Assembly: GCA_007376445.1 (NCBI GenBank)
Contig: VMGF01000003.1
Span: 31,024-95,023 of the forward strand
DNA from: Parcubacteria group bacterium Gr01-1014_3
GTDB lineage: Bacteria; Patescibacteriota; Minisyncoccia; UBA6257; WO2-44-18
Reading direction: 5' to 3'
DNA: 64,000 nucleotides
Under the pieces are notes generated by a model, which saw nothing but the letters and a program-made list of their open reading frames with translations, made no database searches and was not told the origin of the DNA. Position numbers and translations under genes: made by a program. This document shows positions 1,297 through 58,133 of the stretch, piece after piece; within the stretch, counting starts at the first letter, position 1, and every line of letters begins with the position of its first letter.

Positions 1297-1340
1297 TTCT
1301 TGGAATATTATAACTTATTTTTTAGCAACAGTCAATTCTA

Positions 1341-1376
1341 TCCCCCCCCACTTTCTCCTTCCAAACTGCTTAAGAG
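1341..1376. repeat. degenerate duplicate of the 3' coding end of the DEAD-box helicase gene (direct repeat partner of 1775..1808)
   Basis: The reverse complement reads KQFGRRKWGG, against KQFGRRKWGR* at the real helicase C-terminus; about 28 of 33 nt identical. Confidence 0.6.
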
Positions 1377-1393
1377 CATTATATAATTCAATA

Positions 1394-1738
1394 ATGTCAG
1401 AAACATTTAATCCACAATCTCAAGAGCGCCCTCCTGAAGACCCCTTGAAAAAAGAGCGGATAGAAAACGTGACCAAAGCACTTACTGAGGCTGAGGCAAT
1501 TTTTGAAGCCGAGGGCAGAGAGAAGGCAAAGTCACTTTTGCCGAGAATTTACGATGATTTAATTGTGTTAAACAAAAGAAGCAAAGAAGAGTGGGAAACT
1601 GTCTGGGTTTGGAATTCAGACGGAGATTTGACTGAAGAAGAATTTAACTCCCTGGATCATCGTAGAAGGCTATTATCCAATGCTATTGGTATTCTGACAG
1701 CATCGGGCGAAATCAGGCACGATCTAAACAAAATTTAA
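1394..1738 (+). CDS. hypothetical acidic protein lying between the two helicase-3'-end repeats
   Basis: ORF; TATATAAT -10-like box just upstream; rho-independent terminator just downstream. Confidence 0.5.
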   Translation: MSETFNPQSQERPPEDPLKKERIENVTKALTEAEAIFEAEGREKAKSLLPRIYDDLIVLNKRSKEEWETVWVWNSDGDLTEEEFNSLDHRRRLLSNAIGILTASGEIRHDLNKI

Positions 1739-1741
1739 AAT

Positions 1742-1774
1742 AAAAAAGACCCGATAGCTACCGGGTCTTTTTTA
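1742..1774. terminator. bidirectional rho-independent terminator (GACCCG...CGGGTC with A-run and T-run)
   Basis: Hairpin plus flanking A and T tracts between convergent genes. Confidence 0.7.
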
Positions 1775-3109
1775 TCTCCCCCACTTCCTTCTTCCAAACT
1801 GCTTGCTTGGGCCGGAAAAACCACTCGGGCGAGAAGATGGGCGTCCACCGCCAAAACCTGGGCGGGGTGCTTGCCCGCCGTGGCGGGGACCACCAAAGCC
1901 TGGCCTGCGACCAAAACCGGGACGGCTACCAAAACCTGGCCGACCACCTTCAAAGGCTGGCCGAGCTAACCTAACCGGCGCGCGATGCGGCGGAAGCTGT
2001 GGAACTTTAGAAAGCGGCAAAGCGCCACGCATCAGACGCTCGATATCCCGGACATCACCCTTCTGATTCGGCTCGGCAAAAGAAATAGCGTGACCCTCTT
2101 CACCGGCCCGGCCTGTGCGGCCAATGCGATGGATATAATCCTCGGCGCTTTGCGGAAGATCAAAGTTAATGACCAGCTCGATGCCTTTTACATCAATACC
2201 GCGAGCGGCGATATCCGTGGCCACCAGAATCCGATAACGTCCATTTTTAAAACCCTCCAAGGCATCCCGGCGCTGGCCAAGAGAACGATTAGAATGCAGC
2301 TCTGCTACCGTGTACCCAAAGGTACGAACTGACACGGTGATCTTTTTGGCGCCATATTTTGTGCGAGTGAACACCAAGACTGAACCTTTATATTCGCCCA
2401 ATAATTTTTCTAAAAGACGGACTTTGTCCATTTTTTCCAAAAAGAAAAGCTCGTGAGTAACTTTAGCCGCGGCGGTGCCTTGCGGAGCTACTTCCACGCG
2501 AAGTGGCAACCTCATCACCGATTTTGCCATCGATACGATACTTTCCGGCATCGTCGCGGAGAAAAGCATGGTCTGTCGCTCACGCGGTACCACGGCAAGA
2601 ATACGATTTAATTGCGGCGCGAAACCCATGTCCAACATTCTATCCGCTTCATCCAATACCAAGACCTCCACACCAGAAAGCGAGACGGTCCTTTGCTGAA
2701 TATGATCCACGATCCTGCCCGGAGTGCCGATGATAATGTTCGGATTTTTCTTTAGCATGCTCATTTGACGGCTCATTGAGTCGCCACCGATCACGATCAC
2801 GGATTTCAAACCAAGCGGGCCGGCGATCTTTTCAAAAGTTTCATGAACTTGATAAGCCAATTCCCTAGTAGGCAAAACTACCAAGCCCAACTTGCCTTTA
2901 AGCGCGGCCTGGATCATCGGGATACCAAAAGCGAGCGTCTTACCGGTGCCGGTCTGCGCGATACCCATCAAATCCTTGCCCTCCAAGGCAGACGGAATAC
3001 ACCTCTCCTGAATCGGTGTTGGGGTCGTAAAATTGAGCTTATCTAGCAACGCTAAGATATTGGGAGCGATGCCTAATTTGTAAAAACCGGAAGATTCATT
3101 CACGCCCAT
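1772..3109 (-). CDS. DEAD-box ATP-dependent RNA helicase with C-terminal Gly/Arg-rich (RPGFG) tail
   Basis: AQTGTGKT (motif I), PTRELA, VLDEADRMLDMGF (DEAD), SAT, HRIGRTGR motifs. Confidence 0.9.
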   Translation of the reverse strand: MGVNESSGFYKLGIAPNILALLDKLNFTTPTPIQERCIPSALEGKDLMGIAQTGTGKTLAFGIPMIQAALKGKLGLVVLPTRELAYQVHETFEKIAGPLGLKSVIVIGGDSMSRQMSMLKKNPNIIIGTPGRIVDHIQQRTVSLSGVEVLVLDEADRMLDMGFAPQLNRILAVVPRERQTMLFSATMPESIVSMAKSVMRLPLRVEVAPQGTAAAKVTHELFFLEKMDKVRLLEKLLGEYKGSVLVFTRTKYGAKKITVSVRTFGYTVAELHSNRSLGQRRDALEGFKNGRYRILVATDIAARGIDVKGIELVINFDLPQSAEDYIHRIGRTGRAGEEGHAISFAEPNQKGDVRDIERLMRGALPLSKVPQLPPHRAPVRLARPAFEGGRPGFGSRPGFGRRPGFGGPRHGGQAPRPGFGGGRPSSRPSGFSGPSKQFGRRKWGR

Positions 3110-6059: not shown

Positions 6060-6109
6060 CTCCTCAAATAGTTAAAGTTCCGACTAGATATTACAATAAT
6101 AACTTGCTT

Positions 6110-7839: not shown

Positions 7840-7882
7840 AGTAGTAATCGCAAATATACAAATAAAAGATTAATATTGCGAA

Positions 7883-8293
7883 TTAAGCTACCGACGAATT
7901 CAAAATACGTCGATATTTAACTCCCTCTCTCGTAAAATATAGCAGAATTCCTAGCTTTAGACCAGCGCTTCGTAAATAAGTCAAAACCTGCTGAGTATGC
8001 ACATAACCAAACTTTTGAACGACTTTTAACTCCAAGAGAATTTTGTCATCTACAATAAAATCCGCAAAATACTTACCTATATTTTTAGCTTTGTATTCGA
8101 GCGGAATATAAACTTCCCGCTTAAATTCTAGGCCTTGTGTTTTCAATTCTTCAGCTAAAGCTCTTTGATAATCCTTTTCTGTAAATCCCCAACCTAATTC
8201 ATTAAAAACATCAAAAACAGCGCCTACAATTTTATAACTTAGCTCCGGTAAAATTACCTTATCAGCTTTTTCTATTTGCAATATTTTGTTCAT
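7883..8293 (-). CDS. GxxExxY family protein (PD-(D/E)XK nuclease-like)
   Basis: ELGWGFTEKDYQRAL carries the G-x-x-E-x-x-Y signature; paralog of 19019..19423. Confidence 0.8.
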   Translation of the reverse strand: MNKILQIEKADKVILPELSYKIVGAVFDVFNELGWGFTEKDYQRALAEELKTQGLEFKREVYIPLEYKAKNIGKYFADFIVDDKILLELKVVQKFGYVHTQQVLTYLRSAGLKLGILLYFTREGVKYRRILNSSVA

Positions 8294-8312
8294 AAATTCG
8301 CAATATTAGCGA

Positions 8313-9852: not shown

Positions 9853-9854
9853 GG

Positions 9855-9927
9855 AGCCACCTCCCGGAATCGAACCGGGGACCTTTGCTTTACGAAAGCA
9901 CTGCTCTACCAGCTGAGCTAAGGTGGC
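9855..9927 (-). tRNA. tRNA-Thr (anticodon CGT), copy 1
   Basis: Manual cloverleaf on minus strand: GCCACCT...AGCTGGTAGAGC...loop TTCGTAA...TTCGATT...AGGTGGC; CCA may be encoded (9852-9854). Confidence 0.7.
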
Positions 9928-9934
9928 TTTGACG

Positions 9935-9966
9935 TTATATTATAACATTTCCCGAGTTTTTCCAAA
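9935..9966 (-). promoter_or_regulatory. sigma70-like promoter for tRNA-Thr copy 1 (TTGGAA -35, extended TGTTATAAT -10); duplicated at 10236-10280
   Basis: Minus strand reads TTGGAAaaactcgggaaatgtTATAAT 8 nt before the tRNA 5' end. Confidence 0.55.
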
Positions 9967-10075
9967 GAAAATAAGAGCAGGTGACGAGAATCGTCCGGTC
10001 ATACGACCGGACAGCCCAGTCGGATGACTGGGCGAACTCACGTCTCTACTTTACCCCGCACCTTTTCTCGATTAG

Positions 10076-10147
10076 AGCCAGAGAGAGGAGTCGAACCTCC
10101 AACCCCTCCCTTACGAAGGGATTGCTCTGCCATTGAGCTACTCTGGC
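10076..10147 (-). tRNA. tRNA-Thr-like (anticodon CGT), copy 2, flanked by 35-bp inverted repeats
   Basis: GCCAGAG..GCTCAATGGCAGAGC..loop TTCGTAA..GGAGGTTCGACTCCTCT..CTCTGGC; 27-43 mismatch. Confidence 0.6.
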
Positions 10148-10218: not shown

Positions 10219-10284
10219 GTCTCTCTTTATTTAAATACTAGGTCATATTATAACATTTTGCGGATTTTTTCAAAGAAAATAATG

Positions 10285-10356
10285 AGCGGATAACGGGAGT
10301 CGAACCCGTGTCTGATCCTTGGGAAGGATCCATAATAGCCGTTATACGATACCCGC
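10285..10356 (-). tRNA. tRNA-Gly (anticodon CCC)
   Basis: GCGGGTA..GTATAACGGCTATTAT..GGATCC-TTCCCAA..ACGGGTTCGACTCCCGT..TATCCGC. Confidence 0.75.
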
Positions 10357-21875: not shown

Positions 21876-22796
21876 TCACTGCCTTACTAACTTTAAAACT
21901 CCGCCGCTCCAACTCGAACCCATCGTCCCCTTCTCCAGGGTAGTGAAGATCTGCGCCCCCGCGGATTTGAGACGAGCGAGCGCTGCCGGCGTGGGGTGGC
22001 CGTAAGTATTTTTGCCAACTTCGATGATCGCGGCCTTCGGTTTTACCGCGGCTAAAAATTCCGCGCCGCTGGAAAATCGAGAACCGTGATGCCCGACCTT
22101 CAAAATATCCGCCGATAGATCGTATCTTTTCATCAACTCGTTTTCGACATTAAAGCCAATATCTGCCGTAAATAAGATCTTGAAGTTCTTGTCGCGAAGC
22201 ATAGTCACCAAGCTGGTGTCGTTTAGCTCGCTACTTAATAGATCACCGCTATTCGGAGAAAGAATGCCTAAGGCCGTATCCTCGTGAATTATCCGATCTT
22301 CCTCCGCTAATTGAATATACGGAACGCCCCGATTCTGAAGCTCGTTGATTAGAGTCTGATAAGCTCCGGCAGTGCCTTTTCTGCCATTCCCAATAAACGC
22401 TCCGACTTCATAATTTTTCAGCACATCAATAAACCCTCCGAAGTGGTCTAACTGGGGATGGGTCATCAAAAGCATATCGATATACCGGTCCTGGGGCGGT
22501 AAGACTTTGGCCAGCGCCGTTAACACTTTGCCATCCGGATTCCCAGCATCGATCAATAACTTCGGGCCACCAGGAAAAATAATCAGCTGGCTATCCCCTT
22601 GCCCGACATCCAGAAAATAAATTCTGGCACTATCACGCGTGATAGTGCTTGCTTGGATAATCTGATACCAGACAATTCCGTCCAGCAATAATAACGCCGC
22701 TACAATATATAAAACCCAGTTAGACTTTTTTGCTTTGGAATTTTTGTTCAGCATAATAGACAAGTCCAATAAGCGCGGCCCAATAAAGCACGCCAT
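21876..22796 (-). CDS. comEC: ComEC C-terminal metallo-beta-lactamase domain protein (split from N-terminal part)
   Basis: HxHxDH-type MBL motifs (HPQLDH, HHGSR); likely starts at internal Met near 22754. Confidence 0.7.
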   Translation of the reverse strand: MACFIGPRLLDLSIMLNKNSKAKKSNWVLYIVAALLLLDGIVWYQIIQASTITRDSARIYFLDVGQGDSQLIIFPGGPKLLIDAGNPDGKVLTALAKVLPPQDRYIDMLLMTHPQLDHFGGFIDVLKNYEVGAFIGNGRKGTAGAYQTLINELQNRGVPYIQLAEEDRIIHEDTALGILSPNSGDLLSSELNDTSLVTMLRDKNFKILFTADIGFNVENELMKRYDLSADILKVGHHGSRFSSGAEFLAAVKPKAAIIEVGKNTYGHPTPAALARLKSAGAQIFTTLEKGTMGSSWSGGVLKLVRQ

Positions 22797-24153
22797 AGAA
22801 CCAATTAAAGTTCACTACTTCGAATACTCCGCCTAGCTTAGAAAACCAGTCGATGACCGTCAACTCGTAAGTAAGGAGTATGCTGACCAGCCAAGCTAAC
22901 GCCTGCGCCAACCAGCCAGAGATCACGGCCGCGAAAGCCACCATAAATCCAAAAAACATCGTGAGCGGTATGGCGGAAAGTAAAAGCATATTGGTCAACA
23001 AACCCATCGCGGAAACTGTGCCGAATGAACTTAATAAAATCGGGAGCACGGCCAGCTGCGCGGAAAGGGTGGCAAAAAGATTCTGCCGCCAGTTCAGGAT
23101 TCCCGGCTCCTCTTTCGCGCGGACAAGCTTTCGTAATGCCGGAGCCAGATAAACGATTCCTAAAAGCGCAGCGAAGGAAAGCTGGAAGCCAATATCCCAC
23201 ACCAACACTCTCGGATTCGCGAGCACCATCAGGAGCGCGGCAAGCGCGAGAGCGTTCCGGAAATTGTGGATCCGCCCGATCTGGTTCGCGAGTAAAAGCA
23301 AAGAAGCCATGATCGCCGCCCGCACCACCGAGGCTTCGGCTCCCGTCATCACCACGAAGCCAAGAATGATCACCACGGTCAGGACGAAAAACGTCCGCCG
23401 CGAGACCCGGCCCGCTAGAGCTAGGCCAATAGCGTCAATAATAATCGCCACGTTGTACCCGGAGAGCGCGACTAAATGAGAAGTGCCAGTCAAACTCAAC
23501 TTTTCCCGGAATTCTTTGGTGAAGCCGGAGGTATCGCCCAGAATTAACCCGGAAAGAAAAGCGGCCCGCTCTGGCGAGAGGACTTTATAAAATGAATCCC
23601 GCACAAAATCCCGTATCGAAAACAATCCCCGCTTCAGCCAAAAACCTTCATTCTCCCCGGTTGGCGTAATTTTCGGATTCCGCATTCGCGCCACAATGCC
23701 ATTTTTCAGATAGGAATTTTTATATTCCTCCGGAATCTCTTCTACCTTGCCATCAATTTTCAAAACATCGCCATATTTATATGCCGGGTATTTCGAGGTG
23801 AATATTTTAAGCCTGCCGTTATATGACTCGCGAATCGCCATAATTAACTCCTGACTCTCCATTCCCTGCTCGGCTTTGGCCACAAACCCGGTCAGTTCCG
23901 CCTTTTGTCCGACCGGTAAATTACTGGACAGGCGGAACTGGTCGACGATGACAACATGACCATAACCAATGACCAGAAAAATGCTTAATGCCGCCATCCA
24001 ATAACGTCCCAGAAGTAAAAACAGCGCGCCCAGTAAAAGCGTGATTCCGATAATTATCCAGAACCTACTTCCCCATTCTTGAAACACGCTTGCCAGAAAT
24101 ACCCCAATCAAAAATAAGCTGGAGGAATAGAAAAATATAGAGCCGGGTTTCAT
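22720..24153 (-). CDS. comEC: ComEC N-terminal part (DUF4131 + competence/Rec2 membrane domain)
   Basis: Polytopic membrane domain typical of ComEC; overlaps the downstream MBL ORF in a different frame. Confidence 0.7.
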   Translation of the reverse strand: MKPGSIFFYSSSLFLIGVFLASVFQEWGSRFWIIIGITLLLGALFLLLGRYWMAALSIFLVIGYGHVVIVDQFRLSSNLPVGQKAELTGFVAKAEQGMESQELIMAIRESYNGRLKIFTSKYPAYKYGDVLKIDGKVEEIPEEYKNSYLKNGIVARMRNPKITPTGENEGFWLKRGLFSIRDFVRDSFYKVLSPERAAFLSGLILGDTSGFTKEFREKLSLTGTSHLVALSGYNVAIIIDAIGLALAGRVSRRTFFVLTVVIILGFVVMTGAEASVVRAAIMASLLLLANQIGRIHNFRNALALAALLMVLANPRVLVWDIGFQLSFAALLGIVYLAPALRKLVRAKEEPGILNWRQNLFATLSAQLAVLPILLSSFGTVSAMGLLTNMLLLSAIPLTMFFGFMVAFAAVISGWLAQALAWLVSILLTYELTVIDWFSKLGGVFEVVNFNWFYGVLYWAALIGLVYYAEQKFQSKKV

Positions 24154-27805: not shown

Positions 27806-29012
27806 ATTTGGACTTGGCTAACTTTTCTCGAATCTTTCGGAATAGATTTTCCATAAACCAAAGGTTATGAGCGGTAGCCAAGATCGGGCCAAGCATCTCC
27901 CCTGCGCGGAAAAGATGAGCCAAATATGAACGGCTATAGTTTTTACAGGTATAGCAGCCGCACTTTTTGTCGATCGGATTTTTGTCTTCCAGATTTTTAG
28001 CGAGTTTTAAATTAAATCTTCCACCCTCCACCAAAGCCGCGCCATTCCTGGCCAGCCGGGTCGGGGCCACGCAATCAAAAGTATCCACGCCGGCCATTAC
28101 GGCTTTTTCTATATCCTCCGGAGAGCCGATGCCCAAAAGATGCCGAGGTTTTTCCTCTGGTAAAAGCGGCATAATCCAGTCCAGGATTTTATACATATCC
28201 GACTTGATCTTGCCCATCGCGCCGCCAATACCCACACCATCAAAACCTAAATTGCCGATTACTTTGGCTGATTCTTTGCGCAGATCCTCAAATACACCAC
28301 CCTGAATCACGCCATATAAAGCCTGCCGCCCAATGGGATTGGGCGAGCCTCGCCCAGAATGGGCGGGCTTTTTGTGTTTGAAAGCTTCCAGACAACGGAC
28401 CGCCCAGCGATGCGTGCGCTTCATAGAGCGCTTGGTATATTCATAGTCGTGAAGCGGAGAGGTGCACTCATCAAAAGCAAAAATTAAATCAGCGCCAAGA
28501 TTTTCCTGAATTTGGATAGATTTTTCCGGGCTGATGAAATGGCTCGAGCCGTCGATATGCGAGCGGAACTCCACGCCCTCCTCGCTGATCTTGGTCAGTT
28601 TCTCTTTTTTAGGAATCGCGTGCTCCGCCTCGCCCTCGCGTAAGACCCCGGTCTTTTCTCCGGGGAAAATATTGGCAACTTTACCCACGCCATGCTCCAG
28701 GGCCGCGCCTAAACTGAATACCTGAAAACCGCCGCTGTCCGTCCAGATCGGCCGGTCCCAATTCATAAACTTATGAAGTCCGCCCATTTTTTTAACTATC
28801 TCATCGCCCGGGCGGAGATAGAGATGATAGGTATTACAAAGCAAAGAATCAGAGCCGATTTCTTTAAGTTGATCCACGGTCAGGCCCTTGATGGCCGCCT
28901 GTGTGCCAACCGGAATAAAAGCCGGCGTATGGATCACTCCATGCGCGGTTTTTATAATGCCTAATCTTGCTCGAGTCCTATTTGATTTTTTAATAATTTG
29001 AAAGATTCCCAT
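27804..29012 (-). CDS. tgt: queuine tRNA-ribosyltransferase
   Basis: ARLGIIKTAHGVIHTPAFIPVGT N-terminus, catalytic Asp region, CCxC...H zinc site. Confidence 0.9.
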   Translation of the reverse strand: MGIFQIIKKSNRTRARLGIIKTAHGVIHTPAFIPVGTQAAIKGLTVDQLKEIGSDSLLCNTYHLYLRPGDEIVKKMGGLHKFMNWDRPIWTDSGGFQVFSLGAALEHGVGKVANIFPGEKTGVLREGEAEHAIPKKEKLTKISEEGVEFRSHIDGSSHFISPEKSIQIQENLGADLIFAFDECTSPLHDYEYTKRSMKRTHRWAVRCLEAFKHKKPAHSGRGSPNPIGRQALYGVIQGGVFEDLRKESAKVIGNLGFDGVGIGGAMGKIKSDMYKILDWIMPLLPEEKPRHLLGIGSPEDIEKAVMAGVDTFDCVAPTRLARNGAALVEGGRFNLKLAKNLEDKNPIDKKCGCYTCKNYSRSYLAHLFRAGEMLGPILATAHNLWFMENLFRKIREKLAKSK

Positions 29013-29015
29013 AGA

Positions 29016-29092
29016 TGTAAATTTTCAATTTTAAATTTTGAAATTTTAATTTAAATTAAAATTTATAATTTCAAATTTTAAATTATTGAGTA
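29016..29092. promoter_or_regulatory. AT-rich palindromic leader element family B copy 1 (contains perfect palindrome AAATTTTAATTTAAATTAAAATTT), directly upstream of tgt
   Basis: Near-identical blocks upstream of rplL (35869-35951) and rnc (46806-46876); no Shine-Dalgarno. Confidence 0.6.
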
Positions 29093-44048: not shown

Positions 44049-44074
44049 ACCTTAATTCTAAAACACAAAACTCC

Positions 44075-44190
44075 AATTTCCAATTATCAATTTTCATTCA
44101 ATACGCAATAACCAAACTTTAAACGGTTTAAAAATTGGTTCTTTGAAAATTCAATGAAAATTGCAAAATTGAGAATTGAAAATTAAAGGA
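44075..44190. repeat. intergenic repeat family A copy 2
   Basis: CAATTTTCATTCAAT ... ATTCAATGAAAATTGCAAAATTGAGAATTGAAAATT inverted arms. Confidence 0.65.
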
Positions 44191-46805: not shown

Positions 46806-46876
46806 AGACAAATTTTAAATTTTTAATTTTGAAATTTTAAATTAATTTAAAATTTTTAATTTATAATTGAAAATTA
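46806..46876. promoter_or_regulatory. AT-rich palindromic leader element family B copy 3, directly upstream of rnc
   Basis: TTTAAAATTTTTAATTTATAATTGAAAATTATT core. Confidence 0.6.
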
Positions 46877-47350
46877 TTTTTCAGCCGCTTTCTCTTTCTT
46901 CTCCCTCTTCGGCTCCTCTTTCAAGTCGCCTGAGGCGATCATCTGCTTATAAACCGTGCCAAGCACGCCATTAATAAATTTACCGGAATTCGGACCGCCG
47001 TAATTTTTCGAAATCTCAATGGCTTCATTAATCGCCACCTTCGGTGGAACTTCCTCATGATCGGCATACATCAGCTCATAAAGTCCGATACGAATGGCAT
47101 TGCGGTCAATAATCGCGATCTGCTCAAGCGGCCAATCCGGCGCGACCTTCGTGATTATCTCGTTCAGGTCTTTTAAATGTTCAACTATCCCCTTTACTAA
47201 ACGCCAGGCAAAATCCGGCTCATCGATACCCGGAGCGAACTCCAGTAAGTTCCTCTCAACGATCTTGATAAGGTCATTCTTCTGACTATAAAAATCCCAC
47301 TCGTACAAAGATTGTAGGACTACGGAACGCGCTAGTTGTCGAGTAGCCAT
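46874..47350 (-). CDS. nusB: transcription antitermination factor NusB with Lys/Glu-rich tail
   Basis: NusB fold signature. Confidence 0.85.
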
Positions 47351-47364
47351 GTTTTTATTATTAC

Positions 47365-47516
47365 AGAAAAATTCTCAATTTTCAAATACCTGTTTTTGAA
47401 TTTCCAAATATCAATTTTGCAATTTTCAATCAATTTACAATGAATTAATTTTCAAAACCATTGATCCTTAGGTCTTGATGATTGAATGAAAATTGGTATT
47501 TGGAAATTGAAAATTA
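47365..47516. repeat. intergenic repeat family A copy 3 (longest)
   Basis: Aligns along about 110 nt with copy 1 at 6128-6240. Confidence 0.7.
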
Positions 47517-50182: not shown

Positions 50183-50209
50183 ACAATCGTCCCCGCAAAT
50201 GCGGGGACT

Positions 50210-50290
50210 TTTAATTTTCAATTCTCAATTTTGCAATTTTCAAATTTGGAAATTGAATGAAAATTGGTAATTGGAAATTGATAATTGGTG
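50210..50290. repeat. intergenic repeat family A copy 4 (short)
   Basis: CAATTTTGCAATTTTCAAATTTGGAAATTGAATGAAAATTGGTAATTGGAAATTG. Confidence 0.65.
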
Positions 50291-50324
50291 TTGTATAGTC
50301 TTGGTAGTTACTTGAAAGGGCTCA

Positions 50325-51068
50325 TTGGTGGAGAAAATTCTCTCGATCACGCTTGCGCTGATCTTCTGTCAGGCCTGTACTCCCGCGGAGATCCAGCCAC
50401 TACCCGATCCCCTAGCGAATTTGCCGGTCAAAACCGCCCAGCAGATCTACGACGAAGCTGATTATTTCGTGATGATTGAAGGAAGCCGGTACGCCGATGG
50501 CGATTTTCAATCCTTCAAGCTTTCCGGGTTTTTGCTTCAATACGCCGACACCTACTATATAGTTACCGCCGGGCATATCAAAAAACCCGGACAGATCATC
50601 TCCGAACCTCTCCGTGTAACTTTGAAAAATGAGACGAACCGTTACTATCACGCCAAAATTCTCGCGATAGATAATGACTATGACGTGGCAATCCTGAAGA
50701 TCGGTTCGGACGCCTTCGATTTTCGCGGCAATATCGGCAAGTTCGGGAACTCCGACTTGGTTGAATTAGATGATCCAGTAATATCCATCGGGAATCCGCC
50801 CGGACACGACTGGCATCTTTCCACCGGAAAAGTGTTAAGTCGGAACTATCGCAACTATAAAAACGTCGCCAAGCATATTCAGCATTCCGCCTGGGGCGGC
50901 CATGGCAGTTCCGGCGGCCCATTACTCAACCGTTACGGTCAGATCATCGGCATGAACATTTCGATGAAGACCGCCAGCATCGACGAAACGAGCTCGAACC
51001 GGATCAACGCTCTTCCCGCGAAATATATTCAAAGATTTTTAGAAAAGGTTTTGCAAAATCCCCACTAG
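50325..51068 (+). CDS. trypsin-like serine protease without PDZ domain, paralog 3
   Basis: Signal peptide; VTAGHI, DVAIL, GSSGGPL triad. Confidence 0.7.
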   Translation: MVEKILSITLALIFCQACTPAEIQPLPDPLANLPVKTAQQIYDEADYFVMIEGSRYADGDFQSFKLSGFLLQYADTYYIVTAGHIKKPGQIISEPLRVTLKNETNRYYHAKILAIDNDYDVAILKIGSDAFDFRGNIGKFGNSDLVELDDPVISIGNPPGHDWHLSTGKVLSRNYRNYKNVAKHIQHSAWGGHGSSGGPLLNRYGQIIGMNISMKTASIDETSSNRINALPAKYIQRFLEKVLQNPH

Positions 51069-51148
51069 ATGGGGATTTTTTTAATTTTATATATTCTGTT
51101 TCCAGAAAGTAGTTGTCCGAGCAAGAAAAATTTAGTAAAATTCTAGCA

Positions 51149-54100
51149 ATGCCTCGCTTTACTCATCTACATACGCATAGCCACTATTCGTTGCTTGATG
51201 GCCTCACCCAAATTAACGATCTCGTAAAACGCGCCAAGGAACTCGGCATGGATTCGCTCGCGGTCACCGACCACGGCAACCTTTATGGCGCCATCGAATT
51301 CTACAAAGCGGCCAAGGCCGCCGGAATTAAACCAATTCTGGGCGTGGAGGCGTACATAATGCCCAACACCAACGGTAATTCGACTACGACAGAACGCTAT
51401 TATCACCTGATCATTCTTTGTAAAAATCTGACCGGCTGGAAAAATCTTTTGAAACTCATCACTCATGCTAATTTGGAGGGCTTCTATTATAAGCCGCGCA
51501 TCAATAAGGACTTTTTACGCAAACACAGCGAGGGCCTGATCGCGCTTTCTGCCTGCCTCGCCGGAGAAGTCTCCAGAGCGATCATGGCAAATAAAATGCC
51601 GGAAGCAGAAAAGATCGCGCTGGAATATCAGGATATTTTTGGAGCGGGAAATTTCTATCTCGAAGTCGGCCATCACCCCGGCATCAAAGAAACCATAAAA
51701 GCCGGCGCGGGCTTGATAGAGATCTCTAAAAAAACCGGCATTCCTCTCGCCGCCACGCAAGACATCCACTATCTCAAAAAAGAGGACGCCAAATACCATG
51801 ATATTCTCCTCGCCGTCCAAACTGGAAATAAATTGAATGACCCCGATCGGCTGACTCTCAAAGACGATGACTTCTCGATGCGTTCCCCGGAAGAAATGGC
51901 CAGTTTCTTTACTCACATCCCGGAAGCTATTGAAAATACCGCCAAGATCGCCGATATGTGTAATATCGAACTCGAACTCGGCAAGATCCAACTCCCAAAA
52001 TTCGCCGTGCCTGTCGATAAGAGCGCGCAAGATTATCTCAAGCAACTTATCGAAGAACGCACCAGTAAACGCTACGCCGTATTAAATGAAGTCGTACAGC
52101 AGCGCATATCTTACGAACTTAGCGTCGTTGAAAAGATGGGTTTTGCCGATTATTTCTTGATCGTCCAAGACTTCATCAACTGGGCTAAAGATCGTGGCAT
52201 CGTGGTGGGGCCGGGCCGTGGTTCGGCCGCGGGAAGTATCGTGGCCTACATTCTTGGCATCACTGACGTCGACCCGATCAAATATGAACTACTCTTTGAG
52301 CGTTTCTTGAACCCGGATCGTATTCAGATGCCTGATATCGACATTGATATTGCTGACCATCGCCGAGGTGAAGTACTCGCCTATCTCACGCAGAAATATG
52401 GAGACGATCGCGTCGCCCACATCATCACCTTCGGAACCATGGCCGCCCGCGCTTCTATTAGAGACGTAGGCCGCGCTTTAGATATCAGCCTCGCCTTTTG
52501 CGATCAGCTAGCCAAACTCATCCCTTTCAACCAAGACCTGGACGAAGCCCTTAAAAGCACCAGTGAGCTGGCCACGCTTTATCGCACCAACCCAGACGCG
52601 CAACGCATCATCGACGCCGCCAAAAAATTGGAGGGCGTGGCTCGCCATGCTTCCATGCACGCCTGCGGTATCGTGATTTCCAATGAACCGCTCATCAATC
52701 AGCTCCCGCTCCAGCGCGCGCCACAAGACGAAAATTCTATTTTGACTCAGTTTGAAATGCACACCGTAGAAGACCTCGGACTTTTAAAAATGGACTTGCT
52801 CGGTCTAAAAAACCTGACCATCATCGAGAATGCCCTAGTTCTGATCAAGGAAAATCACGGCGTGGATCTTGATATACATAAACTTCCGGAATGGGACGCA
52901 AAAACCGAGAAGCTGCTTCAGGCCGCCGACACGACCGGCGTGTTTCAATTTGAATCTTCGGGTATGCGGAGATATATGAAAGAGATCAAGCCATCGGAGC
53001 TTGAAGATCTGATCGCTCTCGTGGCTCTCTACCGCCCTGGCCCGATGGACCTGATCCCGGATTACATTCAAGTCAAACACGGCCTCAAGCAGGTTAAATA
53101 TCTTCATCCGAAACTCGAACCGATCTTGAAAACGACCTACGGCGTGGGTATTTATCAGGAGCAGATGATGCGTATCGCTCGCGACCTCGCCGGCTTCACT
53201 CTCGCCGAAGCCGACACTCTCCGTAAAGCCATCGGTAAGAAAATTAAAGAACTCCTGGATAAGCAGGAAGAAAAATTGATTAAAGGTATGCTTGCTAATG
53301 GAATTGAACCCGCCACGGCCAAGGCCATCTGGGAACTCTTCCCCCCATTCGCCCGCTACGGCTTCAACCGCTCCCATGCCGCCTGCTATGCCCTGATCGG
53401 TTATCAGACCGCCTACCTGAAAGCTAACTATCCAGTTGAACTAATGACCGCCGTACTCAACGCCGATTCCGGCGACACTGACCGCATCTCTTTCTTAATT
53501 ACCGAATGCCAAAAGATGGGCATTCAGATCCTCCCGCCAGATATCAATAAAAGCTCCGCTAGATTCACGCCTGAAGACAAAAATATTCGTTTCGGTTTAG
53601 CGGCCATTAAAAATGTGGGTGAAAATATCGTGAAGCTTCTGATTGAGGAGCGTCAGCGCGGTGGACCATTCCCCGATCTCGTTTCTCTGCTTCAGCGCGT
53701 GCAGAATCGCGACTTAAATAAAAAATCGCTGGAAAGTCTGGCGAAGTGTGGCGTCTTTGATTCGCTCAATATTGAACGCAACCAGATCGTCGCCAATCTC
53801 GAAGATATCGTAAAATTCAGCTCACTCGTGAAGAAAACCGGCCAAAGCACCCAGATGGGACTTTTTGGAAATACCATCTCCAGTAAATCACTCAAACTCG
53901 CTCCCGCCGCCGCGGCTGGCACACAAGAGCGCCTGCTTTGGGAAAAGGAACTGCTCGGCCTCTACTTATCCGATCATCCGCTGAATAGTTATAAAGAAAA
54001 ATTCCGCTCGGCGGGAATCCGCGATATTAAAGATGTAATGACCAGCGCGAATCCGGCCACGCCGAATACGATGTATAAGATCGGCGGCTTAGTTTCCAAA

Positions 54101-54310
54101 GTTCAAAAAATAGTAACCCGCCTCGGCCAACCGATGGTCTTCGTGAAGGTGGAAGATATGAATACCACGCTGGAAGTCGTCGTCTTCTCCGACACGCTCG
54201 CGAAAAACCCCGACATCTGGCAAGAAAATAAGATCTTAGTCATCAATGGCAAAATGTCCTGGCGCAACGGCGAGCAGAAACTCATCTGCAATAGCGCGAC
54301 TGAAGTATAA
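51149..54310 (+). CDS. dnaE: DNA polymerase III alpha subunit (short form)
   Basis: PHP domain HTHSHYSLLDG, polymerase core, OB-fold; start placed at ATG. Confidence 0.9.
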   Translation: MPRFTHLHTHSHYSLLDGLTQINDLVKRAKELGMDSLAVTDHGNLYGAIEFYKAAKAAGIKPILGVEAYIMPNTNGNSTTTERYYHLIILCKNLTGWKNLLKLITHANLEGFYYKPRINKDFLRKHSEGLIALSACLAGEVSRAIMANKMPEAEKIALEYQDIFGAGNFYLEVGHHPGIKETIKAGAGLIEISKKTGIPLAATQDIHYLKKEDAKYHDILLAVQTGNKLNDPDRLTLKDDDFSMRSPEEMASFFTHIPEAIENTAKIADMCNIELELGKIQLPKFAVPVDKSAQDYLKQLIEERTSKRYAVLNEVVQQRISYELSVVEKMGFADYFLIVQDFINWAKDRGIVVGPGRGSAAGSIVAYILGITDVDPIKYELLFERFLNPDRIQMPDIDIDIADHRRGEVLAYLTQKYGDDRVAHIITFGTMAARASIRDVGRALDISLAFCDQLAKLIPFNQDLDEALKSTSELATLYRTNPDAQRIIDAAKKLEGVARHASMHACGIVISNEPLINQLPLQRAPQDENSILTQFEMHTVEDLGLLKMDLLGLKNLTIIENALVLIKENHGVDLDIHKLPEWDAKTEKLLQAADTTGVFQFESSGMRRYMKEIKPSELEDLIALVALYRPGPMDLIPDYIQVKHGLKQVKYLHPKLEPILKTTYGVGIYQEQMMRIARDLAGFTLAEADTLRKAIGKKIKELLDKQEEKLIKGMLANGIEPATAKAIWELFPPFARYGFNRSHAACYALIGYQTAYLKANYPVELMTAVLNADSGDTDRISFLITECQKMGIQILPPDINKSSARFTPEDKNIRFGLAAIKNVGENIVKLLIEERQRGGPFPDLVSLLQRVQNRDLNKKSLESLAKCGVFDSLNIERNQIVANLEDIVKFSSLVKKTGQSTQMGLFGNTISSKSLKLAPAAAAGTQERLLWEKELLGLYLSDHPLNSYKEKFRSAGIRDIKDVMTSANPATPNTMYKIGGLVSKVQKIVTRLGQPMVFVKVEDMNTTLEVVVFSDTLAKNPDIWQENKILVINGKMSWRNGEQKLICNSATEV

Positions 54311-54347
54311 AAAAGCACCCATTTCTGGGTGCTTGCTAGTCACTATT

Positions 54348-54917
54348 CTAGTATTCCGCTCTTGCCTTGTCCTGAGCTGGCGGAAGAGGCTTCCCTTGAA
54401 TCGGTTCGGCCTTTTCTCTCAACTTCCGCTTCATTTCGCGAAGCGCGAGAAGCTGAACCACATCAACACGACCGATGGTCTTAATCAAATCATAAGTCTC
54501 TTGGTCAAGGTGAATGTAACGAACATCCTCCCCTTGACCAACATAAACACGAAGAACTCGCTTCTTATCCCATGCGTATGTCGCACTCACTCTCGCGTTC
54601 ACATAGCTCACGAGCTGTTCGTCGGTAAGCGTTGGTCCCTGTGCCGCCTCATCGGCTAGCCGATGAGGCTTGATGCAGTCCTCATCATAGGCCTGATAAA
54701 TGGCAAGTCCCAGCCCTGAAACTACAACAGCAATAATGAGTATTGGCACCAATGACGCAAGAAGCTTCATTGAAAAAATCCTCTTAAAAATACTCGGCCG
54801 GCGAAGCTTCACAAGCTCCGCCTCTTGCTCTCCGTTCTTCGCCTTAAGTCCCTCAATCAAATGCTCGCACTCCTCCATCGTCATACCTTGATCGCCGACC
54901 TCTACATCATCAGACAT
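54348..54917 (-). CDS. hypothetical membrane-anchored protein carried on the dnaE 3'-end insertion
   Basis: ORF with single TM. Confidence 0.4.
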   Translation of the reverse strand: MSDDVEVGDQGMTMEECEHLIEGLKAKNGEQEAELVKLRRPSIFKRIFSMKLLASLVPILIIAVVVSGLGLAIYQAYDEDCIKPHRLADEAAQGPTLTDEQLVSYVNARVSATYAWDKKRVLRVYVGQGEDVRYIHLDQETYDLIKTIGRVDVVQLLALREMKRKLREKAEPIQGKPLPPAQDKARAEY

Positions 54918-55015
54918 TTGCCGCCTCCTTGCCCCGCCATCGGCGTGGGCTGAAAAAAGGTTGTAAACTAACTGCTGGATATGTTAACCAATTTCCTTGA
55001 ATTTGTCAAATCATC

Positions 55016-55047
55016 CCACCCCACTATCACATGTGATAGTGGGGTGG
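55016..55047. promoter_or_regulatory. 32-bp perfect palindrome CCACCCCACTATCACATGTGATAGTGGGGTGG overlapping the promoter (TATAAT at 55048-55053) of the HTH gene
   Basis: Palindrome immediately followed by TATAAT and an 11-nt leader. Confidence 0.7.
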
Positions 55048-55064
55048 TATAATATTCATTACTT

Positions 55065-55544
55065 ATGATAATCAACAATAAAAAGCTGATTGGTAAATCA
55101 GCAGAAGATTGGACCGAGAAACTTTGGCTAAAGTTAATAGAAAAAGTTAGTCAAACAAATAATGAAGAGGCCACGAGAAAACTGATTGAGCACCTACTTA
55201 GCGCTGATGAGAAAAAGATGATCGCAAAAAGACTCGGTGTTATTGCGCTAATAAAATCTGACAAGTCTTATAAAGAAATCAGTGAAATTCTATGGTTGTC
55301 CCCCAATACCATCAGCACGATCAAAAAGAACATTTTAGGAAATGATGGAAATTATAAGAGTTATCGTAAATTTTATGGCGGGCCGAAAAAATGGAGCGCG
55401 GATATAAAATACGAAAAACCTTTTTGGGAAGACTTCAATCTATTAGAATTTATTGACGATTTGCTTCCGAGATATAGGGGTATAGGACTATTGAGCTCGC
55501 CGGACGTTGCCGCGAATCATACATATCGCAGAAGGCGAAAATAA
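55065..55544 (+). CDS. helix-turn-helix DNA-binding protein (sigma region-4 / TrpR-YerC-like HTH), probable regulator binding the flanking palindromes
   Basis: LSADEKKMIAKRLGVIALIKSDKSYKEISEILWLSPNTISTIKKNI HTH. Confidence 0.5.
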   Translation: MIINNKKLIGKSAEDWTEKLWLKLIEKVSQTNNEEATRKLIEHLLSADEKKMIAKRLGVIALIKSDKSYKEISEILWLSPNTISTIKKNILGNDGNYKSYRKFYGGPKKWSADIKYEKPFWEDFNLLEFIDDLLPRYRGIGLLSSPDVAANHTYRRRRK

Positions 55545-55557
55545 GGCCTCAATCAAT

Positions 55558-55585
55558 CAGCCACTATCACATGTGATAGTGGCTG
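55558..55585. promoter_or_regulatory. 28-bp perfect palindrome CAGCCACTATCACATGTGATAGTGGCTG downstream of the HTH gene
   Basis: Third copy of the palindrome family. Confidence 0.7.
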
Positions 55586-55592
55586 GAAAATA

Positions 55593-55671
55593 AAGTCCTG
55601 GTCGTAAGCGGGAAAATGAGCTGGCGTAACGGCGAACAGAAACTCATCTGTAATAGCGCGGTGGAAATATA
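55593..55671 (+). pseudogene. duplicated 3' end of dnaE (encodes KVLVVSGKMSWRNGEQKLICNSAVEI*), direct-repeat partner of 54231-54310, with its own terminator at 55668-55700
   Basis: About 85% nucleotide identity to the real dnaE 3' end. Confidence 0.65.
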
Positions 55672-55684
55672 AATGCTCCGGTAA

Positions 55685-56086
55685 TTACCGGAGCATTTTT
55701 TTATTTAGAGCTTCTTCGAGCAAACCCACAACGCAATCATACCCACCCTTTTTTGCCCAAAAAATCGCAATACTGTCCCCGGCACGAGGATCGGCGCCAT
55801 GGGAAAGCAATATTCTCACAAGCTCATAATTACCCGCATTGGCCGCACAGCTTAAAGCATAGTCGTTTTGAGCGTGTACGTTTGCGCCGTTTTTTAAAAT
55901 GAATTCGGTCAGCTCGGAATTTCTGGTCAAAAGCCAGACTTCCCAGTCTTCTCGTTTTCGATCATGTATGGTCATAATTACTTCTTCGAGTGACGCCGAC
56001 GCACCGAAAGCTTCCAAGAAATCGGCGCGGGCTTCTACGCATGCACCCATAACTTCAAGTTCTTTGAGGGTAATGATTTTTTGCAA
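55685..56086 (-). CDS. ankyrin-repeat protein
   Basis: ALSCAANAGNYELVRILLSHGADP repeats. Confidence 0.7.
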   Translation of the reverse strand: MQKIITLKELEVMGACVEARADFLEAFGASASLEEVIMTIHDRKREDWEVWLLTRNSELTEFILKNGANVHAQNDYALSCAANAGNYELVRILLSHGADPRAGDSIAIFWAKKGGYDCVVGLLEEALNKKMLR

Positions 56087-56185
56087 AGTGCCTCCTATGC
56101 GAATTGCGTTTCATATTATAAATTAAAAATTTTACTATGTCAAATTCTTTCAAAGCGCGGAGTTCCCTGTTAGAATAATCTACAT

Positions 56186-57907
56186 ATGAAAGAGAATGGG
56201 TCTCTCGAAAATATACGGCACTCGCTCGCCCATCTTTTGGCGGCGGCGGTTTTGAAAAAATACCCGGACGCTAAACTCGGCATCGGTCCGGTGATTGAGA
56301 ATGGATTTTATTATGATTTCCTCCTGCCAGCCGCTCTGACCCCGGAAAATCTCAAAGAATTTGAGAAAACGATGAGGAATCTGGTAAATCAGAAGCTCCC
56401 TTTCTCTGGCAAAGAAGTCAGCGCCGCGGAAGCCAAAAAACTCTTCAAAGATCAGCCATTCAAGCTAGATCTCATAAAAGAATTCGCTAAGGATAAAAAA
56501 CCAATGACCGTATATTCAACCGGCGAGGTCTTTATGGATCTCTGTCGCGGCGGTCATGTGGAAAGTACATCGGAAATCAACGCCGAATCCTTCAAGCTCG
56601 ACAAACTCGCCGGCGCTTATTGGCGCGGTGATGAGAAAAAGCCACAACTCCAGCGTATCTATGGCTTGGCTTTCGCCTCGAAAAAAGAGCTCGAAGAATA
56701 TGTAAAAATGCGCGAAGAAGCTATTAAGCGCGATCACCGCAAGCTCGGTAAAGACCTCGAGCTCTTTTCGATCATTGATGAAATTGGTCCTGGCCTTCCC
56801 CTCTTTTATCCAAAAGGCGCGCTTCTCCGCCGCTTAGTAGAAAATTATATTATTCAGCTTCAGGAACAACGCGGCTATGAGCCGATCTGGATTCCCCACA
56901 TCACCAAAGGCGAGCTTTATAAGATCTCCGGCCATCTGGATAAATACGACGCCATGTACCCGCCGATGAAGCTCAAGAACGAAGCGGATTATTATCTGAA
57001 ACCGATGAACTGTCCGCACTTCATGATGCTTTATAAAACCCTGCCGCATTCCTATAAAGAGCTTCCAATCCGCTGGACCAGCACTACCACCAATTATCGC
57101 TATGAAAAATCCGGCGAACTCTCCGGCTTAACCCGCGTCCGCTCGCTCACCCAGGACGACTGCCATGTCTTCGCCCGGCCCGATCAGATCTCCGGAGAAA
57201 TAAATCTTATGCTGGATATGATCGCGGAAGTATACGAAAAATTCGGCTTTAAGGATTTCTGGGTCCGCATCTCCACTCATGATCCGAAAGATAAGACGAA
57301 ATACATCGGTGATCCGAAAATCTGGGAAGAATCGGAGGCGACTCTGACAAAGCTAATCGAAAATCGCGGCTGGAAACACGAAATCGGCGTGGGCGAAGCG
57401 GCTTTCTATGGACCGAAGCTGGATTTCATCTTCAAAGACGTTCTCGGCCGCGAATGGCAACTCTCCACCATTCAGCTGGACATGAACCTGCCGGAAAGAT
57501 TTGAATTGGAGTACGTCGGTGAAGACGGAAAGAAACAAAGGCCCGTGGTCATTCACCGCGCCATCCTCGGCTCTACAGAACGCTTCCTCGGAATTTTGAT
57601 AGAACATTTTGGCGGCAACTTCCCTCTCTGGCTCGCGCCGGTGCAGATCCGCATCATCCCTATCGCCGACCGGCATCTGGATTACGCCAAGAAAGTCGCC
57701 GCTCAACTCAAAGATTATCGAGTAGAGATTGCCGGCGAAAGCGAAACTATGGGTAAAAAAATCCGCGCCGCGGAGATGCAAAAAATTCCATTTGTCTTAA
57801 TCATGGGCGATGAAGAAGAAAAATCCGATACTGTCAGCGTGCGTGAAGGTCACAAGGGTGATCAGGGCAAGATGACAATAGCCGATCTCCTAAAGAAGTT
57901 AGTATAA
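56186..57907 (+). CDS. thrS: threonyl-tRNA synthetase lacking the N-terminal TGS domain
   Basis: HSLAH editing motif at the N-terminus, class II core, anticodon-binding domain. Confidence 0.9.
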   Translation: MKENGSLENIRHSLAHLLAAAVLKKYPDAKLGIGPVIENGFYYDFLLPAALTPENLKEFEKTMRNLVNQKLPFSGKEVSAAEAKKLFKDQPFKLDLIKEFAKDKKPMTVYSTGEVFMDLCRGGHVESTSEINAESFKLDKLAGAYWRGDEKKPQLQRIYGLAFASKKELEEYVKMREEAIKRDHRKLGKDLELFSIIDEIGPGLPLFYPKGALLRRLVENYIIQLQEQRGYEPIWIPHITKGELYKISGHLDKYDAMYPPMKLKNEADYYLKPMNCPHFMMLYKTLPHSYKELPIRWTSTTTNYRYEKSGELSGLTRVRSLTQDDCHVFARPDQISGEINLMLDMIAEVYEKFGFKDFWVRISTHDPKDKTKYIGDPKIWEESEATLTKLIENRGWKHEIGVGEAAFYGPKLDFIFKDVLGREWQLSTIQLDMNLPERFELEYVGEDGKKQRPVVIHRAILGSTERFLGILIEHFGGNFPLWLAPVQIRIIPIADRHLDYAKKVAAQLKDYRVEIAGESETMGKKIRAAEMQKIPFVLIMGDEEEKSDTVSVREGHKGDQGKMTIADLLKKLV

Positions 57908-58133
57908 GGGCTTCAGCGGCCGTTTTTTCTTCGCCCTCGGCGCGCCGCTCCGACTTAAGTCGGAGACCGATTATAGGATAGTCCAGCCGGCGCGCCTCCC
58001 CACGGCCCCGCTAAAAGCGGAGCCTCGCCGTTGGCGGGGCGTGGCGGGATGTTCCGAAAAATTAATTGGCCTCCGCTTTGTTAAATAAAGGAAATTATAT
58101 ATAGAAAAACCCCGTCCTTTCAAGGGCGGGGTT

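Follow-up and report, generated by a model that had tools for sequence, protein, structure and literature searches.

Bacteria of the candidate phyla radiation (CPR, or Patescibacteria) have tiny genomes, and their routes of gene gain are poorly understood. We analysed a 64-kb stretch of DNA (the window) from a groundwater Parcubacteria genome of this radiation. The window, which is the part of the genome inspected, contains ordinary core genome (ribosomal proteins, ftsI/murF/mraW, SMC, ComEC, dnaE, thrS, gatB and others) and no recognisable integrase or transposase. Between dnaE and thrS lies a 1362-nt block with two divergently transcribed genes, orf189 and a regulator of the TrpR family, and the dnaE terminus is present on both sides of it. 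An original prediction made from the sequence had interpreted this arrangement as the attL/attR-like footprint of an integrative element that targets the 3' end of a gene and carries a replacement 3' end. Here we describe the 1.36-kb cassette, its putative operators and its counterparts in related genomes, and weigh how it may have reached the end of an essential gene.

A second dnaE terminus downstream of intact dnaE

The dnaE gene is intact; its annotated start is probably at 51149, and the source metagenome-assembled genome (MAG) lists its 1053-aa product as DNA polymerase III subunit alpha. Its live terminus (copy A) and a second terminus downstream (copy B) align without gaps over 94 nt at a spacing of 1362 nt, with 74/94 identical positions (79%) and a longest identical run of 14 nt. 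In 200 dinucleotide-preserving shuffles the alignment score averaged 20 and reached 29 at most, compared with 78–88 for the real pair, which is the strongest nearby direct repeat of the window. The predicted direct repeat of the dnaE end is thus real, passes the shuffled-sequence alignment test and is slightly longer than described; its second copy ends at 55672 rather than 55671, and the identity of about 85% was an overestimate, the value being 77.5% over the 80 nt originally compared. Read in frame, copies A and B give the dnaE C-termini WQENKILVINGKMSWRNGEQKLICNSATEV and WLENKVLVVSGKMSWRNGEQKLICNSAVEI, both followed by a TAA stop codon. The frame of copy B is closed upstream by a TAG at positions 55577–55579, inside palindrome 2 (see below), and copy B is therefore a non-coding relic.

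We determined the significance of each relic individually, by dinucleotide-preserving shuffles and by simulations that place the same number of substitutions at random. These tests were relied on instead of a proteome-wide relic scan, the permutation control of which is flawed in that all loci contain homologous dnaE. Copies A and B differ at 20/93 nt and in 13 codons, seven of them synonymous (including a TCC/AGC serine switch), and all six residue replacements are conservative, with the stop codon kept; randomly scattered substitutions cause so few changes in only 0–6e-5 of the simulations. Comparison of copy B with the live terminus of the sister locus L100, described below, gives 19/93 nt but only four residues that differ, again with the stop kept (0/50,000 simulations). 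This coding signature implies that relic B was a functional terminus in some lineage, where it would have evolved under purifying selection as a working dnaE end, with little decay since. It argues for an insertion event that is recent relative to the split between the window and L100, the dnaE genes of which show 33% third-position differences.

A stable hairpin follows each copy, as predicted (−14.7 and −18.8 kcal/mol; z-scores of −4.7 and −6.6 for A and B). Hairpin A has a T-run on the minus strand only and therefore terminates the convergent orf189. Terminator B probably ends the transcript of the helix-turn-helix (HTH) regulator gene and may be the original dnaE terminator. No further relics were found between relic B and thrS in the window, and Rfam gave no match above chance within 53.5–56.5 kb.

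An independent Logan assembly of run SRR8863434 matches the window at 100% identity over positions 50213–55045 and 55018–57943, with its sole break inside the 32-nt palindrome 1. Both repeat contexts are covered, and the structure is therefore not an artefact of one assembler. The coordinates of all features are collected in Table 1.

Table 1 Features of the dnaE–thrS interval and related sites in the window
Feature	Position	Strand	Basis or remark
dnaE (DNA polymerase III alpha), intact	51113..54310	+	Pfam PHP, DNA_pol3_alpha, finger, HHH_6 and OB domains
Live copy A of dnaE terminus (last 30 codons, stop and 1 nt)	54218..54311	+	Repeat alignment
Hairpin A, intrinsic terminator of orf189	54313..54334	-	T-run on minus strand only; L100 homologue with same loop
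orf189, cargo gene 1, 189 aa	54348..54917	-	One hydrophobic transmembrane-like window from residue 43; AAGGAGG before ATG
orf189 promoter-like site	54981..55009	-	TTGACA-17-TAACAT; 6 nt from palindrome 1
Palindrome 1, 32 nt, perfect	55016..55047		Core 20-mer 55022–55041; putative operator between divergent promoters
Promoter-like site of TrpR-like gene	55026..55053	+	−35 hexamer inside palindrome 1; −10 is a TG-extended TATAAT
TrpR-family HTH regulator, cargo gene 2, 159 aa	55065..55544	+	Pfam PF01371 (Trp_repressor), 7.8e-12
Palindrome 2, 28 nt, perfect	55558..55585		Core 55562–55581; putative downstream operator; right arm overlaps start of relic B by 6 nt
Relic copy B of dnaE terminus, now non-coding	55580..55673	+	Repeat alignment; frame and stop codon kept
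Terminator B, canonical intrinsic terminator	55671..55698	+	T-run and fold prediction
Ankyrin-repeat gene, in slot between relic B and thrS	55685..56086	-	Pfam; comparison with L100
thrS, conserved right-hand neighbour of dnaE in the clade	56186..57907	+	Locus comparison; L100 homology resumes at 56091
Third exact 20-mer copy	37355..37374		Overlaps stop of sigma-70-type gene (37360–37965)
Variant palindrome	22628..22647		Inside metallo-beta-lactamase open reading frame (21876–22796)
Helicase case, second and smaller	1338..1804	-	DEAD-box helicase terminus 1772–1804, relic 1338–1371

Cargo genes

Both cargo proteins are annotated by NCBI as hypothetical proteins. The prediction of a membrane-anchored gene on the minus strand and an HTH gene on the plus strand held, Pfam assigning the latter to Trp_repressor. 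The orf189 product matches no Pfam family, and its single-sequence AlphaFold model is too poor to use (predicted local distance difference test, pLDDT, 58.6). Among 1.84 billion representative proteins it has a single homologue, P0151 (51% identity by phmmer, 49% by BLASTP), which is likewise encoded beside dnaE and a TrpR-like gene.

The TrpR-like protein scores 45.5 bits against a Pfam gathering cut-off of 27. In the structural model, residues 10–93, the only part with a pLDDT of 75–88, match E. coli TrpR (Foldseek probability 1.0, TM-score about 0.65), and the top 40 Foldseek matches of the model are all TrpR or TrpR-like structures. The composition of the gene deviates from its surroundings, with a GC content of 0.36 compared with about 0.49 around it and a GC content at third codon positions (GC3) of 0.38 compared with 0.57–0.58 in dnaE and thrS. 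The promoter-like sites of both cargo genes point outward from palindrome 1, and the TrpR-like repressor probably autoregulates its own gene and controls orf189. Searches of IMG/VR with the TrpR-like protein and with the palindrome 20-mer returned no match to either, and a phage or viral origin of the cassette was rejected.

Palindromes as putative operators of the TrpR-like regulator

The two perfect palindromes that had been noticed between the repeats, of 32 and 28 nt, are both present and have the 20-mer CACTATCACATGTGATAGTG in common. The window holds four sites of this 20-mer, one of them a two-mismatch variant, compared with an expectation of 0.00. The third exact copy adjoins, from upstream, a TTGACC-17-TAATAT promoter of a 212-aa membrane orphan gene, and the variant, CACTATCACGCGTGATAGTG, has the centre CGCG. 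From the positions of these two sites, a small regulon may extend to a sigma factor and to the competence locus.

Nine loci of other assemblies encode TrpR-like homologues (41–74% identity), and in each of them the gene has the palindrome, or a variant of it, on both sides: the upstream one adjoins a TATAAT/TATGAT box, another follows right after the stop codon, and sometimes arrays of 2–5 are found per side. The centre of the palindrome co-varies with the clade of the TrpR-like protein (ACATGT, ACGCGT, ATTGAT; TTCAGCTGAA in L100). The motif has 50 matches in 165 kb of gene-bearing loci and three in 930 kb of other loci, one of these three (L002) being a second copy of the window's own site. 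The genes around the homologues are unrelated (MreB, polA pieces, Mur ligase and others), and palindrome, gene and palindrome therefore form a self-contained regulator unit. For the same reason we rejected a conserved two-gene module around all TrpR homologues; the pairing with an orf189 homologue is found only in the window and L100.

Regulators of the TrpR family bind 20-bp palindromes (PMC9413887), and the palindromes of the window are putatively 20-bp operators of the TrpR-like repressor and not element ends. Their interpretation as att sites, element ends or marks of an insertion boundary was ruled out, as they accompany every TrpR-like homologue and co-vary with it in unrelated contexts. 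The cassette protein resembles the TrpR and HisR (YerC) repressors (PMC9413887) in its Trp_repressor domain, its TrpR-like fold and a 20-bp perfect palindrome over its own promoter. It differs from them in a 60-aa C-terminal extension of unassigned fold, in operator copies that flank the gene on both sides (with arrays of 2–5 per side in some genomes) and in that the gene has no link to amino-acid biosynthesis genes.

Several other arrangements of small regulator genes were observed. In L094–L097 (e.g. L096, 9781–10905), 2–5 TrpR-type palindromes lie on each side of the regulator gene at distances of 50–130 nt; such arrays exceed the needs of simple autoregulation and are reminiscent of centromere-like sites or sites of nucleoprotein complexes. 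The TrpR-like gene and its palindromes lie between separate genes for the PolA 5'-3' exonuclease and polymerase domains in L098 (5288–8119) and also in L099; in L093 the TrpR-like gene lies beside, and outside, the two separate PolA-domain genes. Small regulator genes of the PaaX/Cas2-like type have their own repeats on both sides in L049 (9224–10006; perfect palindromes of 36–37 nt) and L029 (8925–9645; imperfect hairpin repeats of about 36 nt). In L049, a match of the repeat scan turned out to be the palindrome pair around this gene. Site, small regulator gene and site thus seem to be a recurring unit in or near the dnaE–thrS hotspot.

The dnaE–thrS junction in related genomes

We compared dnaE neighbourhoods among 80 species-representative Parcubacteria loci, in which thrS is the usual downstream neighbour of dnaE. 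The empty sites that had been expected in related genomes are found in 13 loci, where thrS directly follows dnaE at a gap of ≤60 nt. In other relatives the gap extends up to 3.5 kb and contains unrelated and mostly orphan genes. The variable gene content identifies the dnaE–thrS junction as a hotspot of gene gain.

The closest counterpart of the cassette lies in L100, a 3.9-kb contig of GCA_041643015.1, which was reached via P0151 and by exhaustive HMMER search only. A scan of metagenome contigs for the dnaE C-terminus gave relatives of 47% at the closest, a word-indexed protein search gave dnaE matches that are all ≤59% and returned orf189 as an orphan, and look-ups of 90%-identity clusters added nothing useful on relatives. 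L100 is 87.0% identical to the window at the nucleotide level over the last 1315 nt of dnaE (96% at the amino-acid level) and 84% identical from position 56091 into thrS. Its order is dnaE, a convergent orf189 homologue (49–51% amino-acid identity) with a terminator hairpin homologous to hairpin A, a TrpR-like gene with two palindromes on each side, a relic of the dnaE terminus, a 132-aa gene and thrS.

Gene order is shared, and the details differ. The TrpR-like protein of L100 (PF01371, 8.5e-9) is 50% identical to that of the window over the N-terminal 96 residues and has a different C-terminus, compared with 74% and 61% identity between the window protein and proteins of unrelated contexts. 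Its operator, CACTATTCAGCTGAATAGTG, is different from that of the window. The relic comprises 17 codons (GWRNGEQKLIVNNATEV and stop) versus 31 in the window; a palindrome abuts the relic in the window and is 50 nt away in L100. The gene after the relic is the ankyrin gene in the window versus an unrelated membrane gene (orf132) in L100.

The four termini (A and B of the window, A' for the live copy and R for the relic of L100) were compared over 53–56 nt. Copies A and A' are 86.6% identical, equal to the rest of dnaE, followed by A–R (85.7%), B–A' (80%), A–B (78.7%), A'–R (77.4%) and B–R (73.6%). The two relics are the least similar pair, and R is closest to the live copy of the window, with which it shares the last 16 nt, ACTGAAGTATAAAAAA, without a difference; the relic of the window and the live copy of L100 share the type ending in AVE(I/V). 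Both genomes have one terminus of either type, in opposite roles, which means that the two relics do not go back as orthologues to a single event. In our reading, related cassettes were captured independently in the two genomes, and there was exchange between the lineages.

Two short matches came to notice only afterwards and are probably coincidental: the 8-mer ATCCCCCC near both ends of the L100 cargo and a half-site, CACTATTC, after hairpin A. Between the dnaE stop and the terminator of the orf189 homologue, L100 also has a stretch of about 150 nt (2440–2626; 1315–1500 in the reverse complement) that has no counterpart in the window and contains the nested inverted repeats GTCATTGCG...CGCAATGAC and GAAGCAATCT...AGATTGCTTC. 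This stretch may be a small structured or mobile insert.

Stacked relics and a second case at a helicase gene

In L029, a locus from a Jorgensenbacteria MAG, dnaE is followed by a gene for a 515-aa TPR membrane protein, a relic (EPKLICDEVKEL and stop), a PaaX/Cas2-like regulator gene flanked by its own repeats, a second relic, another gene and thrS. The relic nearer to dnaE (8850–8888) differs from the live terminus at 10/39 nt and in one of 12 residues, with the stop kept (0/20,000 simulations). The farther one (9692–9730; ESKLIRDEVTEP and stop) is more decayed, with a score of 39 compared with a shuffle maximum of 24. Serial insertion at the live terminus would leave the relic closer to dnaE better preserved, as is seen here. 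Across the three genomes the left edges of the relics lie at different codons before the stop: −31 in the window, −17 in L100, and −12 and about −13 in L029. The diverged cassette of L100 with its own junction and the stacked relics of L029 strengthen the suggestion, made from the window, of a new kind of cassette.

The resemblance that had been pointed out at a helicase gene of the window also held, on a smaller scale. The last 11 codons of a DEAD-box helicase gene (KQFGRRKWGR and stop) recur 433 nt downstream with a 1-nt indel and two synonymously swapped arginine codons, and the two copies flank a 114-aa orphan gene (1394–1738, plus strand) and its terminator. The architecture is the same as at dnaE, in a repeat whose short length does not allow statistics. 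A stand-alone gene for a 90-aa GIY-YIG nuclease (739–1011; Pfam 3.5e-20) adjoins tRNA-Gln (610–681) at a distance of about 330 nt from the relic of the helicase end.

A proposed route of capture by host recombination

On balance, we lean towards the interpretation that the 1362-nt block is a foreign cassette, captured at the stop end of dnaE by host recombination without an integrase, and that such capture is recurrent at the dnaE–thrS junction. DNA of a related lineage would recombine by means of homology in dnaE and its terminus, and the other joint would form within about the last 30 codons of dnaE at a very short match, either TGGC or TATAAA at the stop. In this process dnaE would stay complete, and a second terminus would be left behind as a non-coding relic. 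The junction would act as a slot resembling a minimal mobile element (MME), served by natural transformation and by RecA-type or illegitimate recombination. An insertion, an intact dnaE and a second terminus are indeed present, as the original prediction held, and its site-specific integration is probably wrong. The variable junctions and repeats of 79% identity that lack a long identical core argue against a classical attL/attR pair.

Two geometries can be envisaged: (i) by homology-facilitated illegitimate recombination (HFIR), a long arm would pair in dnaE and the far end of the cargo would join at TGGC, 31 codons before the stop, so that the live terminus is imported and the relic native; (ii) the cassette would arrive with the terminus of its former host, with crossovers in dnaE and near the shared TATAAA, so that the live terminus is native and the relic foreign. 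HFIR joins one homologous and one illegitimate end, and single crossovers in E. coli duplicate a gene end by 109–950 bp (PMC3240628). Geometry (i) is the classical expectation. We mildly favour geometry (ii), because the identity between A and A' equals the gene-wide 87% without a breakpoint, and because terminator B would then have been that of dnaE originally, with hairpin A belonging to the cargo. TGGC is common to palindrome 2 and the relic junction, and TATAAA to both stops; both matches are candidate positions of the joint.

No recombinase gene was found by Pfam in the cassette, in the dnaE–thrS interval of L100 or among the ten unassigned open reading frames (ORFs) of the window, in line with the original prediction, which saw no integrase in the block. 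The window contains an ORF of the ComEC type with a Competence domain (PF03772, 1e-47; 22720–24153) and an adjacent metallo-beta-lactamase ORF. Saccharibacteria, other members of the Patescibacteria, have been shown to be naturally competent, with integration by homology (PMC10633639). The competence locus of the window consists of these two ORFs, 22720–24153 (Competence) and 21876–22796 (metallo-beta-lactamase), with a 77-nt overlap, which may reflect a genuinely split locus, a frameshift or an error of sequencing.

Several points weigh against capture by host recombination. Neither a donor nor an excised circle nor an empty site at strain level was found, and the closest locus-bearing relative is 87% identical at the nucleotide level; relics of dnaE occur in three genomes only, so that recurrence rests on few events. 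RecA would have a poor substrate in this homology (94 nt, 79% identity, longest identical run 14 nt) if no other arm took part. Random illegitimate joining does not predict that all junctions cluster in about the last 30 codons; a survivorship argument is required, namely that long repeats are unstable. No recombination breakpoint was detected in dnaE by sliding identity versus L100 (best chi-square 3.1) or by GC3, at weak power. The data fit either A or B as the native copy, and either of them as the replacement 3' end of the original prediction. The competence of this organism is a circumstantial prediction from the ComEC-type ORF and the analogy with Saccharibacteria, and operator binding by the TrpR-like protein is predicted from sequence.

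A further elaboration, which we regard as rather unlikely, assigns the relic a role as a portable homology arm: integrase-free cassettes would carry a dnaE terminus and home into the dnaE–thrS junction by ordinary recombination. The dnaE body and the carried terminus would both pair with the single dnaE end of a competent recipient, dnaE would be restored and the repeat regenerated for the next hop. Older cassettes and relics would be pushed downstream, leading to a stack as in L029.

Alternative explanations

The explanation closest to the original prediction is a non-autonomous site-specific element, such as a cis-mobilizable or integrative mobilizable element (CIME/IME-like) or a satellite, with an attP that mimics the dnaE terminus and an integrase that acts in trans. 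The footprint with a restored gene end is the classical one of attL/attR, a related cassette sits at the same gene end of the sister L100, relics are stacked in L029, and the longest identical runs (14 nt in the window, 17 nt in L029) both lie over the K-L-I-C codons and could be a core. These codons, however, are the most conserved part of the protein, where identity is expected anyway, and the left edge of similarity differs each time, as listed above. With no recombinase gene in the cassette, the L100 interval or the ten unassigned ORFs of the 64 kb inspected, and with neither the palindrome nor the TrpR-like protein in IMG/VR, we consider an integrase in trans unlikely. A transposon of the insertion sequence (IS) or miniature inverted-repeat type was rejected: there is no transposase, the duplication is 88–94 nt long at 79% identity, and the palindromes flank the HTH gene only.

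Vertical inheritance of one ancient insertion that preceded the split between the window and L100, with fast evolution of the cargo and trimming of the relic in one lineage, would account for the same gene order and orientation in both loci and for the homologous terminator hairpin of orf189; given dnaE genes that differ at 33% of third positions, an identity of about 50% is within reach for a protein under weak constraint. The clean coding signature of relic B relative to both live termini (≤6e-5) is, however, unexpected for a pseudo-sequence that has drifted since before the split. In addition, B and R are the least similar pair and R resembles the live copy of the window, the junctions differ (31 versus 17 codons, palindrome abutting versus 50 nt away), and so do the operators and the gene after the relic (ankyrin gene versus orf132). 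The TrpR-like protein of the window is moreover closer to proteins of unrelated contexts (74%, 61%) than to that of L100 (50%). A single old event is thus quite improbable. Still far less probable is that the dnaE end was duplicated locally in tandem, or by replication slippage, and that unrelated insertions between the copies followed, even though gene-end direct repeats can arise in this way and no mobility gene is needed: copies made in situ start identical and then decay randomly, whereas the 20 differences observed are mostly synonymous or conservative with the stop kept, and the pattern of the termini is reciprocal between the window and L100.

The dnaE–thrS gap of L062, a locus of another Parcubacteria that came up in the repeat scan and served as positive control, contains a diversity-generating retroelement (DGR; 7227–9739) with a reverse transcriptase (7227–8297), a template repeat (8606–8728) and a variable repeat (9079–9201) at the 3' end of a 222-aa gene, six of the eight mismatches being at template adenines. 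Copies A and B could accordingly be taken for a variable/template pair, or, the contig being metagenomic, for an assembly artefact. Only 5–7 of their 20 mismatches involve adenine in either direction, no reverse transcriptase lies nearby, and each repeat copy is reproduced at 100% identity by a second, independent assembly, so that we give hardly any weight to either explanation.

Comparison with known systems

The MMEs of Neisseria (Saunders & Snyder 2002; Snyder et al. 2007, as described in PMC3787668) exchange cassettes between conserved flanks without mobility genes, and the exchange is ascribed to natural transformation and flank recombination. The dnaE–thrS interval resembles them as a slot between conserved genes that holds different cassettes in close relatives without a transposase or integrase. 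The flanks are 87% and 84% identical to those of L100 at the nucleotide level, the interior is different or strongly diverged, and the gap is variable in 80 species. There are no mobility genes or IS terminal inverted repeats, the palindromes belonging to the TrpR-like unit. In contrast to the MMEs, the interval contains a diverged duplicate of the terminus of the flanking gene, such relics can lie one behind another, the left joint falls within the coding end of a gene that is essential, and transformation would have to operate in uncultivated Parcubacteria.

HFIR and single-crossover insertion-duplication of the Campbell type (PMC3240628) lead to the same topology without a site-specific enzyme. 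Those are laboratory events with identical homology, whereas here the repeats are natural, 79% identical and recurrent, and the donor was not found. MMEs, HFIR and insertion-duplication are known kinds; the distinctive element of the present case is the terminus relics, with the support of three genomes. Integrase-encoding islands at the 3' ends of tRNA, tmRNA and protein genes likewise show target-derived direct repeats, an intact target and empty sites in relatives, but the cassette has no integrase, is only 1.36 kb long, and has repeats without an exact core and a variable junction. Integrative mobile elements that use host XerCD at dif (IMEX; CTX/TLC arrays in Vibrio) are integrase-less and accumulate at a single chromosomal site; in the present case a coding terminus is targeted that does not resemble a dif site. 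DGRs share a repeat of roughly 100 nt of a gene 3' end a short distance downstream and differ in the nearby reverse transcriptase and adenine-specific mismatches, both of which are lacking here.

If an essential gene end is repeatedly used for capture by host recombination, this would be a concrete and testable route of gene gain for CPR bacteria, and the displaced termini would form a datable fossil record of successive events. The TrpR-like regulator family of Parcubacteria and its putative operator, as defined here, provide a handle on regulation in organisms in which few transcription factors have been characterised.

Other repeats in the window

An AT-rich intergenic repeat family (AAATTTTCAATTTT... 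/ ...GAAAATTGAGAATTA) occurs in the window at 6109–6237, 28979–29087, 35843–35951, 44056–44185, 46807–46878, 47373–47516 and 50209–50295. Tandem tRNA-Thr(CGT) genes (9852–9927 and 10075–10147) are found together with tRNA-Gly(CCC) (10284–10356). A 61-nt direct repeat (9934–9993 / 10242–10302, 80% identical) lies upstream of the first tRNA-Thr and of tRNA-Gly and runs on into the 3' end of the latter, suggestive of a local duplication.

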